From positions 1 to 6,331 of IMG/VR virus record IMGVR_UViG_3300029905_000179: a DNA stretch of 6,331 nucleotides. One strand, written 5' to 3'. Below are positions 1,710 through 6,331 of the stretch, piece by piece (within the stretch, counting starts at the first letter, position 1; every line of letters starts with the position of its first letter). The DNA comes from a virus. Made by a program: the position numbers and the translations under genes. Below the pieces are notes generated by a model. The model was not told the origin of the DNA and ran no database searches. It saw only the letters and a program-made list of their open reading frames with translations.

Positions 1710-1769
1710 AACTATTATGTTTTATTAACTGATTTTATGGATTCTGTCAAACCGCAATAATTACTCAAG

Positions 1770-1816
1770 AAAGGCGGCTTGCTCCCGAGCTGACTCGGGA
1801 GCGGGCTGCCGCCTTT
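1770..1816 (-). terminator. GC-rich nested hairpin, candidate intrinsic terminator or attenuator between the capsid block and the pilot-protein block.
   Basis: The outer stem is aaaggcggc (1770-1778) paired with gccgccttt (1808-1816). The inner stem is gctcccgag (1781-1789) paired with ctcgggagc (1794-1802), with the 4-nt loop ctga. On the coding strand the stem is followed by CUUGAG after the stem's own UUU, so the U-tract is weak. It lies in the 112-nt gap between the 99-aa ORF stop (1822) and the next ATG (1709). Confidence 0.5.
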
Positions 1817-2133: not shown

Positions 2134-3783
2134 TTAAAGCATTCGACCACGATAAGGGATATCCTCTTTATGAGTGTCTTTAAGGTCACCGAGAGTTGGC
2201 ATTACCCACTCACTGAAAGGAGACACTTTTTTATAGTTCAAATACATATCAAGCCAAGCGGAAAAACCACTGACAGAAGTACTTACGGCCTGAACCTGGT
2301 CAAGATAAGATTCTGGTATTTGCAAAAATTCAGTAGACAAGTCAGGTGTATCAGAAGTAGGGAATGAACGCTGCAAAGCAAAAGCCTCAAGGTCAGAACC
2401 ATCTACCAAAAGACCATGTACCTCATCATCATGATACTTCACCTCGCTATACTGCTGCTGGTAACCGAAAATGGATTCTTTAAAACCAGTACCAAGCATA
2501 CCGTTCAACTCACAAGAATAGATAGGCTGCTCACCAAGCCCCTGCAAAAGGGGCATTGGTATATCACCTCTAGTGTTATACGTAAGGTGGCGCCTTATAC
2601 CAGTAGAATAGTAAGCGTGAGGAACAATAGATGCCAAAATCATGAGATAACCATGCTCGGTTGACTGGAAGCCAGAAACAAGATTACCATCCTTAAATCC
2701 TTGCGAAGAAGCACCAGAAGAACCAACGTTACCAATGAAAGGATTTCGAGAATCGTCAACAGTTGACTGACCACCTTGCTGATAAACAGAACGGTTGTAA
2801 ATGCCGAACATATCACTACCGAGGAAGATGGCACGATTAACGACTGCATCAGAAGGCATTGTACCGAAGTGACCTTTAATCTGGTCAGCATACTCCTCAC
2901 CACAAACGTTGTTACGCTCCATCCAGCGTTGGAGAACATTTGCCTGACGGAGGGCGGAAATAGAAATCTCACCAGTATCTCCAGATGTGTCAAACTCAAC
3001 GGTTGAGCCAAGAACGTCACCAGATGCCTGCGGATAAAGTGCAGCAGTGGTAAAATAGTCCTTTGCCCAATTACGCTGACGGAGTGCAAAAATAGAAACA
3101 TCATCAGCAAGTTTAAGTGGACCGAAAGTTGTTATATCTGGATCTGGACTTGACGCTTCAAGATAATTGAAACCAATCTCACCAGAAAACCAAGGAAGTG
3201 AACCAACGGTATTGATAACAGGCGAACCAGGAGTGGTACTTGTATTATAATTTACAAATACACGCTGCTGAATCTGCTTACTTCGATACCAATCATCATA
3301 TATCTTATGATAAGCAAGATAAGGAAGAATATTTGGAATGTAATAACCACCAGCGGGGCAAGAGGTCATATTAACCTTAGAACCAAGGTAATCAGTGAGA
3401 GAGCCACGACCAAAAATGGGGTTAGTACAATCAGTAGTAATAACATAAGGAAGACGAGTTGGACGGACAACGGGGGTAGAATAAGGATTGTTGAAAGGCA
3501 TAGTAAAGAAATTCTGCCAACCGCCCCAAAGGGTACGCATAGGGACGAAAAACGCTTCAAGACGCATATCAATGCGGCCGAAAAAGTTGGTTGCCATAGG
3601 GGGCAAGGTAACCTGGGAAAGGTGACCGATATTGAACGTCTCATTAGGTGAGACAAACTCGCAAAGCACGGGAACAAGAGTTCCGCACTTCATGGTGAGA
3701 AGATTCTCAAATGACATGTCGTAACCAGAGCGGTTAGGAATGTCCACTTTTTGACTAGTAAAGATTTTACTTAAATGTGCCAT
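2134..3783 (-). CDS. VP1: Microviridae major capsid protein (VP1 / phiX174 gpF family), 549 aa.
   Basis: The N-terminus NRSGYDMSFENLLTMKCGTLVPVLCEFVSPNETF fits the family pattern R-x-x-F/Y-D-L/M-S ... T-x-x-x-G-x-L-x-P ... V-x-P-G/N-D/E-T-F. It is followed by FFVPMRTLWGGWQNFF, the FFVPxRxxW hallmark. Size is typical for Gokushovirinae/Alpavirinae capsids. The stop is TAA at 2134-2136. Confidence 0.93.
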   Translation of the reverse strand: MAHLSKIFTSQKVDIPNRSGYDMSFENLLTMKCGTLVPVLCEFVSPNETFNIGHLSQVTLPPMATNFFGRIDMRLEAFFVPMRTLWGGWQNFFTMPFNNPYSTPVVRPTRLPYVITTDCTNPIFGRGSLTDYLGSKVNMTSCPAGGYYIPNILPYLAYHKIYDDWYRSKQIQQRVFVNYNTSTTPGSPVINTVGSLPWFSGEIGFNYLEASSPDPDITTFGPLKLADDVSIFALRQRNWAKDYFTTAALYPQASGDVLGSTVEFDTSGDTGEISISALRQANVLQRWMERNNVCGEEYADQIKGHFGTMPSDAVVNRAIFLGSDMFGIYNRSVYQQGGQSTVDDSRNPFIGNVGSSGASSQGFKDGNLVSGFQSTEHGYLMILASIVPHAYYSTGIRRHLTYNTRGDIPMPLLQGLGEQPIYSCELNGMLGTGFKESIFGYQQQYSEVKYHDDEVHGLLVDGSDLEAFALQRSFPTSDTPDLSTEFLQIPESYLDQVQAVSTSVSGFSAWLDMYLNYKKVSPFSEWVMPTLGDLKDTHKEDIPYRGRML

Positions 3784-3827: not shown

Positions 3828-5183
3828 TCATAGGTTATATTTGAGGCCTTTGGCGTAGAAATCGTATAGTTTACGCGTCTTCGACGCAGCACGGCGTAAA
3901 GCATCCTGACGAATCCATACCTCAGCGGCAACGAGACTTTCCAAATCCGTTCGGCCAAAGAGGAAGGACGCAACCTCGAATAGACGGTCATGTAAGCGCT
4001 TAGTACACTCATTGACCATATAAGCCTTAAACGTACGCCATATAGGACTCGTGACATCCTTACGCCAAACAAGGCGTTCCTTAAGTTCATTTGTTTTTTT
4101 ATCAACATACTGTACAAAAACTTTTATAGAGGGAAATACTTTATCAATGTAATAACGGGGTATACGGTAACGGAATCCGTTACGAAGTGTAGTAAAACAA
4201 TGAGATAACCACTCACAAAATTTAGGTGTGAGATAATACTTACGTGTATATAAACGGTCATAATGAACATTACCATCATTGTCTCTCCAAGACTTTATCT
4301 CTCGAATCTCTCTATGAGATATCTCTCGTCTGCCATCAGACAAGTCATTCCACTGCTCAATCATTTCAATCAAATCACTCATATAGTTAGAACCGAGTTT
4401 CTTGGAAATAAGACGGAAACACTTCGGAATGACATGATTGACAACATAGGGATTCTCTGCGAAAGAAGGCTTAGAACAATACTTAGCAACGTATGCCATA
4501 GCGTCACCGACACCGTTTTTTTTAAAATACTGAATGGGCCGACCTTTCCACTTAACATTACCATAATTGGACTGCCAATCAGAAATGAAGTATTTAGAAA
4601 AGTCTGCCACATTGAAATTGACGAAGATAACGGCATGATAGTGAGGGCGGAACGTAGAAGGGCCATACTCGCTGCATATAAAATACTTAAACTTAAGACG
4701 TTCACCATCATGGTCATATGCATACTGCTCACGTACACGTTTGAGCCAATTCTGAACATCTTGTTTTGAAACACAGGGAATTGGTATACCGACTTCAATG
4801 TTGTCAGGACACACATACGCTGAATGCTCATCAAGATGCTCACGCAAACGCCTCAAGTGCCTATTCTCTGGCATATTAACAAAATAGTTACGTATATTGT
4901 CCAGGTATTCAGGGTGCTCCGTTTCCTCAACATAATCGGTAAAACCGTCATCATCGTAAACTACACGGGATTCTACGGGAGTTTCAAGTGTAACATACGG
5001 AATATGATTATTGTCATAAGTCATTGTAATAAAATAAGCATACTTCCATTCACGGAATTCCTGCTCAAGACGGAATGTCCAATCATTCTGGTACTTTTGA
5101 ATACATTCAACACACTTACCGCAGGGGAAAGTAACAACTTCTCCTGTACTAAAATGGCGCATTGTGATTGGACTAATACACAT
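3828..5183 (-). CDS. VP4: Rolling-circle replication initiation protein (VP4 / phiX174 gpA-like HUH endonuclease), 451 aa.
   Basis: The N-terminal Cys cluster is FPCGKCVECIQKYQNDWTFRL. RCR motif I is FITMTY (nt 5016-5033). Motif II is the HUH element HYH within RPHYHAVIF (nt 4635-4643). Motif III is YVAKY with two Tyr (nt 4479-4493), the same pentapeptide as the phiX174 gpA active site. The stop is TGA at 3828-3830. Confidence 0.93.
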   Translation of the reverse strand: MCISPITMRHFSTGEVVTFPCGKCVECIQKYQNDWTFRLEQEFREWKYAYFITMTYDNNHIPYVTLETPVESRVVYDDDGFTDYVEETEHPEYLDNIRNYFVNMPENRHLRRLREHLDEHSAYVCPDNIEVGIPIPCVSKQDVQNWLKRVREQYAYDHDGERLKFKYFICSEYGPSTFRPHYHAVIFVNFNVADFSKYFISDWQSNYGNVKWKGRPIQYFKKNGVGDAMAYVAKYCSKPSFAENPYVVNHVIPKCFRLISKKLGSNYMSDLIEMIEQWNDLSDGRREISHREIREIKSWRDNDGNVHYDRLYTRKYYLTPKFCEWLSHCFTTLRNGFRYRIPRYYIDKVFPSIKVFVQYVDKKTNELKERLVWRKDVTSPIWRTFKAYMVNECTKRLHDRLFEVASFLFGRTDLESLVAAEVWIRQDALRRAASKTRKLYDFYAKGLKYNL

Positions 5184-5208
5184 AGGAATTCTTTGTTTTA
5201 CCGCTCTA

Positions 5209-5240
5209 AAAGGAGCACTGCTCCTTTGGCCGCGGGGCCA
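5209..5240 (-). promoter_or_regulatory. Two abutting small hairpins in the rep leader, candidate attenuator or translational control structure.
   Basis: Hairpin 1 is aaaggagc (5209-5216), loop act, gctccttt (5220-5227). Hairpin 2 is tggcc (5227-5231), loop gcgg, ggcca (5236-5240). They lie between the mini-ORF stop (5277) and the rep ATG (5183). Confidence 0.4.
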
Positions 5241-5276
5241 TAACCACGGAAGTTTTTCATGAGTTTAATTTTTATG

Positions 5277-5363
5277 CTAGTGTATGCTCTCAACGCAATT
5301 ACAACAAGGGAAAGTGACAACTTCTCCTGTACTCGAATAGAGCATTCGATTATTGACTCGCAT
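5277..5363 (-). pseudogene. Decayed duplicate of the rep 5' end, a 28-codon mini-ORF (MRVNNRMLYSSTGEVVTFPCCNCVESIH*).
   Basis: On the minus strand, nt 5363-5277 align to the first ~30 codons of rep (5183-5097). AGTACAGGAGAAGTTGT(C/T)ACTTTCCC matches at 25/26. About 43 of 54 positions match over the conserved core by hand alignment. The peptide STGEVVTFPC-x-x-CVE is shared. The third Cys is replaced by Ser and a TAG follows. Confidence 0.55.
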
Positions 5364-5372
5364 GAAGGTCGC

Positions 5373-5499
5373 TTCATTGTCACCTGCTAGGCACAAAGAT
5401 GCTATGCGCTCCACTGGTTGTCAAGGCTATAACAAGCGCTGCGCGGCCTTGACAACGTTACGCGCATGACGCTCAAAGTGCCTATCAGGTGACAATGAA
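5373..5499. other. Imperfect inverted repeat of about 127 nt (cruciform or long hairpin), candidate replication origin or primosome-recognition element.
   Basis: The outer stem pairs 5373-5394 with 5478-5499 (22 positions, 1 mismatch at 5387/5485). The middle stem pairs atgcgc 5404-5409 with gcgcat 5462-5467. The inner stem pairs gttgtcaaggc 5417-5427 with gccttgacaac 5446-5456 (11/11). The 18-nt apical loop contains agcgct and gcgcg. The element is non-coding and lies between the 86-aa ORF and the rep-like mini-ORF. Confidence 0.65.
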
Positions 5500-5517
5500 A
5501 CGCCGTACAAAGAACTA

Positions 5518-5778
5518 CTAATTGGAACGTACGCGCACGTCACGCACACGTGTAACACGCGCGCGCGTCACGCGGTCTAGTTCAACATTTTGGGCGCTAG
5601 GCCTATAATGAATGTACGTAGAATCAACGGACTCTATATAACGCGTGCGCTCATATCCAGCACGGATAGCACTGCACGAATTTGCAGTTGTTAACAAGAA
5701 CGCGCAACATGCGCCCAAAATGAGAACAACTAGACCTTTCCAGCCGTACTTTTTGAGGAAGTCAATAATCTTCTGCAT
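5518..5778 (-). CDS. Small membrane or lipoprotein-like protein, 86 aa, with an Arg-rich periodic C-terminal tail. Function unknown.
   Basis: The N-terminus has basic residues (KK..K) followed by the hydrophobic stretch GLVVLILGACCAFLLTTA and then NSC, which is lipobox-like but non-canonical. The C-terminus is RVTRARVTRVRDVRVRSN. The ATG at 5778 overlaps the preceding ORF by 17 nt. The stop is TAG at 5518-5520. Confidence 0.6.
   Translation of the reverse strand: MQKIIDFLKKYGWKGLVVLILGACCAFLLTTANSCSAIRAGYERTRYIESVDSTYIHYRPSAQNVELDRVTRARVTRVRDVRVRSN
5527..5574. repeat. CpG-dense tract of three consecutive 14-nt alternating purine/pyrimidine blocks, with a 14-nt direct repeat at 28-nt spacing.
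   Basis: The blocks are acgtacgcgcacgt (5527-5540), cacgcacacgtgta (5541-5554) and acacgcgcgcgcgt (5555-5568), followed by cacgcg. The direct repeat gcgcAcgtcacgcA (5533-5546) and gcgcGcgtcacgcG (5561-5574) matches at 12/14. By hand count there are 13 CpG and 38/60 G+C in 5521-5580. The tract overlaps the last ~19 codons of the 86-aa ORF. Confidence 0.75.
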
Positions 5779-5944
5779 AATATGAAAGTTTCGAAGTTAA
5801 TGATTTACAATTGTTAATAACGCCGTCAAGCATATCAATGACGCCATGTATCTGCTGCAAAGTCGCTATATCCAGAGCATCGAACCTCTGGGAGAGGTCG
5901 ATGCTATCTGAATAAAGCTTACATATGGATAAAAATTGATTCAT
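5762..5944 (-). CDS. Hypothetical protein, 60 aa, predicted helical and acidic.
   Basis: Its ATG overlaps the stop of the upstream 123-aa ORF as ATGA (5944-5941). Its TGA stop (5762-5764) lies 17 nt inside the next ORF. This is the packed, coupled arrangement typical of real phage genes. I recognise no motif. Confidence 0.5.
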   Translation of the reverse strand: MNQFLSICKLYSDSIDLSQRFDALDIATLQQIHGVIDMLDGVINNCKSLTSKLSYYAEDY

Positions 5945-6312
5945 TTCTTTTCAATGTTTAAAATGTCCATAATGCATTCAACGGCAGAAATATATCCACG
6001 GAAGTAATCGACAGTATGAGAACGAACAGAAAGCTGCGAAATAATACTCCGACGTTCTTCTGCAATGTCAATCATAGACATTATACGCTCAAATTGAAAA
6101 GGGGAAATCTCCTTATTACGAGGTATCGTATCATCACAAAGACGTTTTGTATAACTTAAAAGAGCTTTACTAAGTTCTTCAACAACTTCAGATATACCAT
6201 AATAGCGATATAAATCGCATTCAGTGCAAACAATAAAACTATCTCTTTTCGTTTTAGAAGGTGATTTAAAATCAGAAATAATCTTCTGAATGTCTTTAAT
6301 AAACTTATCCAT
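5941..6312 (-). CDS. Hypothetical protein, 123 aa, predicted mostly helical.
   Basis: This is the first ORF downstream of the candidate promoter. The ATG is at 6312 (equal to 80 in the wrap-around copy) and the TGA stop at 5941-5943 overlaps the next ATG. I recognise no domain. Confidence 0.6.
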   Translation of the reverse strand: MDKFIKDIQKIISDFKSPSKTKRDSFIVCTECDLYRYYGISEVVEELSKALLSYTKRLCDDTIPRNKEISPFQFERIMSMIDIAEERRSIISQLSVRSHTVDYFRGYISAVECIMDILNIEKK

Positions 6313-6331
6313 AATTATTATCCATTTGTTG
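6233..6331. repeat. Terminal redundancy, copy 2. It is identical to 1..99.
   Basis: See copy 1. There is a 99/99 identity starting at a6233 (ataaaactatctc...). Confidence 0.95.

Follow-up and report, generated by a model that had tools for sequence, protein, structure and literature searches.

The question raised by this locus is what a second, diverged start of the replication gene is doing just upstream of the first in a small single-stranded DNA (ssDNA) virus. The stretch analysed in full, called the window here, is the 6,331-nt IMG/VR virus record IMGVR_UViG_3300029905_000179. Its positions 1–99 and 6233–6331 form a perfect 99-nt terminal direct repeat, and because these termini are identical, the window represents a complete circular genome of 6232 nt. 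All of its genes lie on the minus strand, including the functional replication gene rep (3828–5183), which encodes a VP4-type Rep of 451 amino acids (aa; PF23343 REP_ORF2-G2P, 3e-12). A first-pass annotation made from the sequence alone described the open reading frame (ORF) at 5277–5363 as a diverged duplicate of the rep 5′ end, and offered as its origin an accident of rolling-circle replication, a template switch, a recombination footprint or a retained leader ORF tuning rep. Comparison with related genomes indicates that this mini-ORF, designated psi-rep5′ or psi, is quite probably a pseudogenised remnant of the rep 5′ end, the scar of illegitimate recombination or of a template switch between two cassette types that are normally alternatives at this site.

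The duplication itself is clear. A repeat search recovered it as the direct repeat D2, an ungapped match of 79 nt with 75% identity between 5268–5346 and 5085–5163 on the minus strand, with a spacing of 183 nt (61 codons). In a local alignment psi and rep agree at 47/57 nt, close to the roughly 80% over some 54 nt first estimated by hand, and the alignment score of 64 compares with 16.7 ± 2.3 (maximum 28) for 200 dinucleotide shuffles, which bears out the claim of homology. The 25/26-nt core that had been pointed out is also present, i.e., AGTACAGGAGAAGTTGT[C/T]ACTTTCCC, encoding STGEVVTFP, is identical at 25 of 26 positions between psi 5308–5333 and rep 5125–5150, both on the minus strand. 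Read on that strand from the ATG at 5363 to the TAG at 5277, the 28-codon ORF gives MRVNNRMLYSSTGEVVTFPCCNCVESIH before its stop, to be compared with MCISPITMRHFSTGEVVTFPCGKCVECIQK in Rep, and it is separated from the rep ATG (5183) by a gap of 93 nt, against the ~95 nt given at first. When one 3-nt deletion is allowed, the homology extends back to the first ATG of rep, which gene callers pass over in favour of the ATG at 5162 (444 aa). At the other end, the D2 homology may reach 9 nt beyond the psi stop, to the first base of a cassette called U below, so that psi homology in total covers window 5268–5363 (minus strand) against rep codons 1–30/33.

The sequence running from the upstream cassette, H, through psi and U into rep is 100% identical in four assemblies, namely the window (JGI/IMG), L005 (ENA ERZ27239279, k119), L006 (Logan SRR4096739) and L070 (ENA ERZ27239296). 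The longest exact word common to psi and rep is 17 nt, and the assemblies show terminal overlaps of 30, 99 and 119 nt, which were taken as the assembler k-mers; the repeat cannot confuse an assembly graph, since the 17-nt shared word is shorter than any assembler k-mer seen. As a separate observation, position 1 of L070 (981 nt) corresponds to window 5364, one base before the psi ATG and at the inner end of the H 3′ arm; the contig apparently starts there because the long inverted repeat interrupted the assembly. Gene finders also call a 59-aa ORF in another frame that spans psi and U (5198–5377, minus strand). This ORF was rejected as a real gene, being confined to this genome; no relative of it was found among 5.8 billion proteins.

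Relatives were compared in two sets, a close set of 24 loci with Rep 55–94% identical to the window Rep and a distant set of 38 microvirus loci, giving 62 in all. No rep 5′ duplicate was found in either set: sequence upstream of rep, compared with the rep 5′ end, scored 15–22 in the close loci and 30 at best in the distant ones, against 64 in the window. The first-pass annotation had called for a search of related genomes for the same duplication and had considered partial rep duplication not to be a regular microvirus feature. The search found no duplicate in any relative, in agreement with that view, and a regular microvirus feature is therefore rejected as an interpretation of psi.

Alignments of the region upstream of rep revealed two arrangements, both of which begin at a nearly invariant GC-rich tract, the GC box (5528–5569, minus strand), which ends an 86-aa ORF. 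In H-type genomes (L001, L002/3 and L007–L010, with Rep 82–55% identical to the window Rep), rep is abutted by cassette H, a long imperfect hairpin that in the window occupies 5363–5509 on the minus strand, with 32-nt arms at 5363–5394 and 5478–5509 and an inner hairpin at 5417–5456. In U-type genomes (L004 and L011–L025, which form a ~90% Rep cluster), H is absent and cassette U is the sole element upstream of rep, lying directly before its ATG. The window copy of U occupies 5184–5268 (minus strand) and consists of a 22-mer (5247–5268), hairpin 1 (5230–5249), hairpin 2 (5209–5227) and an A-rich leader to the rep ATG. Scores for H were 158–188 in L001–3 and L007–10 and ~20 in L004 and L011–25, while those for U were 69–159 in L004 and L011–25 and 14–26 in L001–3 and L007–10; the window reaches 294 for H and 186 for U. 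In every other genome examined the two cassettes are mutually exclusive. Only in the window do they occur together, the order there being GC box, H, mini-ORF, U and rep.

The position of psi within this order is informative. Its ATG follows the H 3′ arm by 16–20 nt, which is the position of the rep start in L001, L003, L007 and L010 (alignments A1 and A2); because rep starts there in H-type genomes, psi occupies the ancestral rep position behind H. Sliding identity places window 5277–5640 nearest to H-type genomes (L003, 84–88%) and the rep side, from ~5250 downward, nearest to U-type genomes (L011, L012 and L023, 76–92%). Thus, of the origins first offered for the duplicate, it is a recombination footprint (or template switch) that agrees with everything the comparison shows, with the copy at the ancestral rep position between H and U. 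Elsewhere in the genome, window 5700–5900 is nearest to L012 (84–90%), and the pilot-protein region (262–862) shows ~80% identity to the H-type genomes L001 and L007, as opposed to ~40% to most genomes that share the rep type of the window. This clade is strongly mosaic and reticulate, and its modules swap partners. In comparisons with L001, L007, L011, L012 and L020–23, it was also observed that region 1262–1462 matches only L011 and L001, and that region ~6100–6300 has no close match in any of these relatives.

Psi has decayed since it was formed. It differs from nine real rep 5′ ends by 11.5–19 nonsynonymous changes, compared with 1–9.5 for the real ones among themselves, and one codon is deleted relative to rep. 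Counts of nonsynonymous differences were used in place of the ratio of nonsynonymous to synonymous divergence (dN/dS), which is unreliable for psi because synonymous sites are saturated (pS ~0.6); by a rough count the psi branch carries an excess of ~10 nonsynonymous changes over 66 sites. The N-terminal cluster G7, C14-G15-x-C17-x-x-C20 (P0001 numbering) is conserved at a level of at least 90% in an alignment of 18 Reps (A3), and psi has lost two of these five near-invariant residues (G15→C and C20→S). The cysteine reported as lost is indeed a serine in the copy (Rep Cys27), and a nearly invariant glycine has also become cysteine. The premature TAG ends the copy after 28 codons, without the HUH/Tyr motif or the REP_ORF2-G2P domain (residues 138–238 of the window Rep) of a Microviridae Rep. 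The best identity of psi to any rep 5′ end is 76% (L004), while the flanking U is 94–96% identical to its closest subtype, U1, and the flanking H 86–90% identical to its counterparts. Psi thus shows relaxed constraint, and nothing suggests a conserved role for the mini-ORF. It presents the properties of a pseudogene fragment, i.e., homology to an intact paralogue together with disabling changes, and flanks that trace to an H-type genome on the left and to a U-type genome on the right.

The only novel junction, between psi and the U-type flank, appears to lie at 5269–5282 (minus strand), as read by eye from the alignment; to the left of it, homology with relatives is unbroken from psi into H. 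The junction sequence CACTAGCATAAAAAT can be read as rep codons 29–33 (10/15 identical), and it can also be read as the short variable segment found after the GC box of U-type genomes (ACTAACGAGCATAAAAG in L011, CACTAGCGACCATAA in L004). A join that can be read both ways is the expected trace of copy-choice or of microhomology-mediated illegitimate recombination. On this account, an H-type genome would have supplied the left part (GC box, H and rep codons 1 to ~30), joined to the right part of a U-type genome, consisting of cassette U and a complete rep, which would place the two normally alternative cassettes in tandem. On a very rough substitution count we lean towards this polarity, in which an unequal crossover or copy-choice event would have combined an H-type left with a U-type right through microhomology between rep codons 26–33 and the sequence after the GC box in U-type genomes. 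The working rep would then be translated from its own start behind U, and any translation of the 28-codon relic would be incidental. Both the molecular route and the order of events are what we infer from these alignments.

Several observations weigh against this account. Psi is nearer to the rep 5′ ends of the U clade (76% for L004, 73% for the window and L023) than to those of the sampled H-type genomes (65%), so that a simple H-type donor requires an unsampled parent, and the order of events is not fixable from 96 nt in a strongly reticulate family. The 10-codon core STGEVVTFPC (5304–5333) differs from rep only synonymously, while 12 of the 18 other codons are changed, and the nominal probability of such an unchanged run is ~0.01 by a post-hoc hand calculation. 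The run could reflect residual selection on a peptide or nucleic-acid motif, or a gene-conversion patch from rep 183 nt away, and chance could also explain it. Moreover, the four assemblies are identical, so the lineage offers no population variation from which selection on the ORF could be measured directly.

The nearness of psi to the U clade leads to a version of the scar model that differs from the one above only in polarity, and that we regard as possible but the less likely of the two. Here the window would be the surviving primary intermediate of the capture of U. A single copy-choice excursion would have run through H and rep codons 1–33 and through ~85 nt of foreign DNA before re-entering at the rep ATG, generating psi and U together; the abundant U-type genomes would later have lost H and psi by a deletion from the end of the GC box to the end of psi. 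This version accounts for both novel junctions and the duplication by one event, and the resemblance of psi to U-clade rather than H-type rep 5′ ends is in its favour, as is the fact that the 90% cluster uniting all the remaining U-type Reps does not include the window Rep. In addition, joining window GACGTGCGC at the end of the GC box to ACTAGC at the end of psi reproduces L004 GACGTGCGCACTAGC (read by eye), and U has a bacterial relative, described next, and must therefore have been imported at some point. However, the window is not a clean outgroup, because its U (94–96% identical to U1, 76–79% to U2) is nested within the diversity of U1 while its rep is nearest to the U2 group. The ~10 extra changes on the psi branch, set against a per-branch synonymous divergence (dS) of ~0.27 between the window and L004, further suggest that psi is younger than the split of the U-type reps, although the numbers are very small.

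The bacterial relative of U was found through its invariant 22-mer, which has exact matches in two ~35-kb metagenome contigs, L071 and L072, that carry the same locus. The identity continues in register, amounting to 36/40 with the first 40 nt of the L004 U; given the 22-mer, the chance of the remaining 14/18 is ~4e-6 by a hand calculation. Collinear blocks then follow (stem, variable hairpin, GAGAGCG), and the downstream 56 nt taken alone in a gapped global alignment score weakly above shuffles (z ~1–2.3). This U-like element (L071 ~1960–2056; L072 ~1715–1813, minus strand) is located ~70–110 nt upstream of an IS110-family DEDD transposase (PF01548 + PF02371) on the opposite strand, and no microvirus gene is near it. 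The closest named homologues of the transposase are annotated as ‘IS110 family RNA-guided transposase’ in Dysgonomonas (Bacteroidales), and a second copy of the insertion sequence (P0130), 94% identical, keeps the adjoining 11 nt of the motif. No match to this bacterial locus was found among GenBank phages and PLSDB plasmids.

In IS110 elements the bridge RNA is encoded in long non-coding ends, and repeated palindromic elements are frequent targets of these insertion sequences (PMC11208160). U resembles such sequences in that its first 40 nt are 36/40 identical to DNA beside a DEDD transposase, and in sharing the same order of blocks. However, the phage carries no recombinase or transposase among the genes of the window, U is antisense to the direction of the transposase, and the two-loop fold of a bridge RNA was not found in U, which forms two simple hairpins; Rfam gave no match in the window or around the bacterial element. 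At the level of sequence, the resemblance suggests that U was captured from, or is shared with, a host mobile element or its target repeat, and it may point to an exchange of sequence between temperate microviruses and the mobile elements of their hosts. A stronger reading, which we hold to be rather doubtful, is that the window is a transitional form of cassette replacement, in which an ~85-nt element derived from IS110 or its target repeat would have been captured by copy-choice that duplicated the rep start, after which U would have functionally replaced H.

A very unlikely origin for the duplicate is aberrant rolling-circle termination or re-initiation by Rep, in which case its boundaries would mark the nick site of the plus-strand origin. 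Rolling-circle replicons can produce duplications and deletions between origin-like sites, and H and U both contain GTTAT(A/G)GCC in or next to hairpin loops. The apical loop of H also holds CTTGTTATA and GCGCTTGT(T)ATAGCC, which are similar to CTTG↓ATA, the consensus at which phiX174 and pC194-type rolling-circle replicons are nicked. However, the left edge of the duplicate is no junction, since homology runs on into H, and the sole novel junction at 5269–5282 has no nick-like motif and is not repeated elsewhere. Furthermore, in relatives with Rep 25–33% identical the rep ATG overlaps or abuts the upstream stop, and H therefore cannot be the universal rep-upstream origin. Taken as a whole, U and H are not significantly homologous either, their alignments being at background (z −1.2 to 2) with the exception of U1 against the H of L010 (z 3.2–4.9, p ~0.005 among 30 tests) and of a short GTTATRGCC match. 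For this reason a tandem duplication of H together with the rep 5′ end, with U as a decayed H, is likewise unsupported.

Less probable still is the proposal that the mini-ORF is a functional upstream leader ORF tuning rep expression, one of the roles first suggested for it. In favour of this, the mini-ORF begins with an ATG and stays in the rep frame through 28 codons, its strand is that of rep, which starts 93 nt further on, and its 10-codon core differs from rep by synonymous changes alone. Leader ORFs and attenuator peptides are likewise short and upstream of their gene on the same strand. However, they differ from the mini-ORF, which is not conserved, is neither adjacent to nor overlapping the rep start and is derived from rep itself. 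It is absent from every relative in both sets, even those with 90% identical Rep, in which rep is immediately preceded by H or U; genomes with a single cassette, of either type, thus lack it. Coupling geometry is lacking, with 93 nt of structured U between the mini-ORF and the rep ATG, and its start context has diverged from the A-rich leader that precedes rep in H-type genomes. Together with the ~10 extra nonsynonymous changes, the deleted codon and the loss of a conserved Cys and Gly, this leaves the leader proposal unsupported; no alternative terminator/antiterminator pairing was identified at the mini-ORF. An assembly chimera, which a metagenomic source and a repeat adjoining a long inverted repeat might bring to mind, is rejected as next to impossible given identical sequence in four assemblies from differing assemblers and k-mers (at least two ENA analyses, a Logan run and JGI) and a repeat without an exact word above 17 nt.

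The ~150-nt H, whose core includes TTTGTGCCTAGCAGGTGACAA, is 86–90% identical to all H types, even where the Reps are 55% identical. The 5150–5600 stretch that contains it folds better than shuffles as single-stranded DNA (z = −6.5), and 8 of the 47 predicted pairs in H show compensatory changes. The ~85–95-nt U consists of the invariant 22-mer, a first stem (CCGNG...GCGG) and a second hairpin with a perfect 8 bp. The sequence of hairpin 2 is wholly different between the subtypes U1 and U2, and compensatory changes are seen between the subtypes and also within each (GCAGTGC / GCGGCGC; AAACAC..GTGTTT / AACCAC..GTGGTT). No match to H or U was found among GenBank phages and PLSDB plasmids, and a search of IMG/VR returned neither a close relative of the window nor the U 22-mer. 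A short ORF beginning MKNFRG(Y/S) was also observed to start from a conserved ATG inside the U 22-mer (window 5199–5261, minus strand; also L004, L011–L025 and L072). Its length is 20 aa in U1, 8–11 aa in U2 and ~40 aa in the bacterial element, where it begins MKNFRGSALAA, compared with MKNFRGYALAA in L004.

In L026, L027 and L033–L037 (Rep 25–40% identical), the rep ATG overlaps or abuts the stop of the upstream ORF with no spacer. Since relatives with 25–33% identical Rep lack a spacer before rep, H and U are clade-specific insertions, and the cassette site is an innovation of the clade of the window. The phiX174 n′ site as opposed to the G4 primase site, and the ssoA, ssoU and ssoT cassettes of rolling-circle plasmids, are examples of interchangeable single-strand origins. 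H and U are similar to these in being folded, strand-specific non-coding cassettes at one locus of homologous replicons, which can be swapped without changing Rep and are dispensable in distant relatives. In contrast to them, H and U show no similarity to a known sso or primosome site. Apart from the window, no genome of the clade carries the two together, and both fold strongly on one strand, are conserved better than the proteins, lie immediately 5′ of rep and are missing from distant relatives. By analogy, their most likely role would be that of single-strand (complementary-strand) origins.

The GC box anchors H and U on the left and encodes the Arg-rich tail of the 86-aa ORF. It consists of three alternating purine–pyrimidine runs (GACGCGCGCGCGTGTTACACGTGTGCGTGACGTGCGCGTACG) within ~42 nt of an otherwise AT-rich genome, and its nucleotides hardly vary among all the H- and U-type relatives, even where Rep is only 55% identical. 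Such conservation far exceeds the need of its Arg-rich coding role, making the GC box a candidate cis element or recombination hot spot. The 86-aa ORF itself (5518–5778, minus strand) has a hydrophobic N-terminal segment whose end, ...LLTTANSC, is lipobox-like, and its C-terminal tail is rich in Arg (RVTRARVTRVRDVRVR). It has no Pfam match and, judged by these features, may be a small lipoprotein (possibly for lysis) or a basic DNA-binding protein.

With regard to affiliation, the ~6-kb circle encodes a Phage_F major capsid protein (2134–3783, minus strand; PF02305, 2.8e-50) along with the VP4-like Rep, as in Alpavirinae-like viruses, and its other genes comprise a pilot-like protein of 394 aa and several small ORFs. 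Among GenBank phages, Rep identity to the window is only ~30%. Relatives in a large protein collection are graded (90, 82, 79, 57, 55, 45 ... % identity), and more distant ones were located in Bacteroidales metagenome-assembled genomes. The Rep with 79% identity (P0004) is encoded by an integrated provirus within the 29.7-kb bacterial scaffold L002. L002 5530–11828 recurs with 100% identity as the 6299-nt contig L003, which comes from a different sample and includes 70–90 nt of bacterial flank on each side. This provirus of ~6143 nt is bounded by an 18-bp direct repeat, TAACATAATGGCGATTGT, at L002 5599–5616 and 11742–11759, which on the phage side lies between genes, following the pilot gene. 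In its left copy, the sequence ATTTAACATAA is the reverse complement of the E. coli dif XerD arm. Such a repeat agrees with the dif-like attachment sites reported for proviruses of Bacteroidetes microviruses (BMV / Alpavirinae) (PMC3091885). Like those proviruses, L002 is integrated, ~6.1 kb long and flanked by a repeat with a dif-like arm; the window, unlike L002, is a free circular genome, and a search of it for the L002 attachment sequence gave nothing convincing. Because this repeat lies far from H, H was rejected as a prophage attachment site. From the provirus and the distant Rep relatives in Bacteroidales genomes, the window is a temperate, Bacteroidales-associated, Alpavirinae-like microvirus, an assignment made on gene content and proviral relatives.

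Exchange at such a site has parallels. The boundary between rep and the intergenic region is a recombination hot spot in eukaryotic ssDNA viruses. Recombination in these viruses has been reviewed (PMC3187698). The event at this locus belongs with the modular recombination seen in Microviridae and in small ssDNA viruses generally, whose breakpoints cluster at the boundary of rep and the intergenic region: the genomes of this clade are patchworks, and the breakpoint lies at the rep 5′ end or intergenic cassette. Here, however, the crossover was unequal, leaving both parental cassettes and a 96-nt partial gene duplicate instead of a clean swap, and no other example of such an unequal-exchange duplicate was found among the 62 microvirus loci. 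Psi is also comparable to the gene-fragment pseudogenes at recombination joints in phages, being a truncated, decaying 5′ fragment beside an intact essential gene, under relaxed constraint and lineage-specific. What differs is the setting, a 6.2-kb ssDNA genome with tight packaging limits from which dead weight would be expected to be lost quickly, yet the copy has persisted long enough to be ~25% diverged.

Being a neutral-looking scar, the mini-ORF should be annotated neither as a gene nor as a regulatory leader. It is of value as a marker, since it reveals a cassette-exchange site between the 86-aa ORF and rep in these gut microviruses. The site can hold either of two strongly structured elements that are unrelated to each other and that both show compensatory base changes; exchange at the site can be unequal, and its product can survive in a circulating genome limited by packaging to 6.2 kb. 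If the transitional-form reading were true, H and U would be interchangeable cis-acting replication elements, e.g., complementary-strand origins, U would have replaced the ancestral, highly conserved H in the most abundant branch of the clade, and the mini-ORF would be a fossil recording how the swap happened. The duplicate alone is modest, and the surrounding cassette system and the IS110 link are the parts worth following. H and U are so far the strongest candidates in this group for cis-acting signals of replication or packaging, and the genome that carries both cassettes is a natural construct for testing which one is needed.

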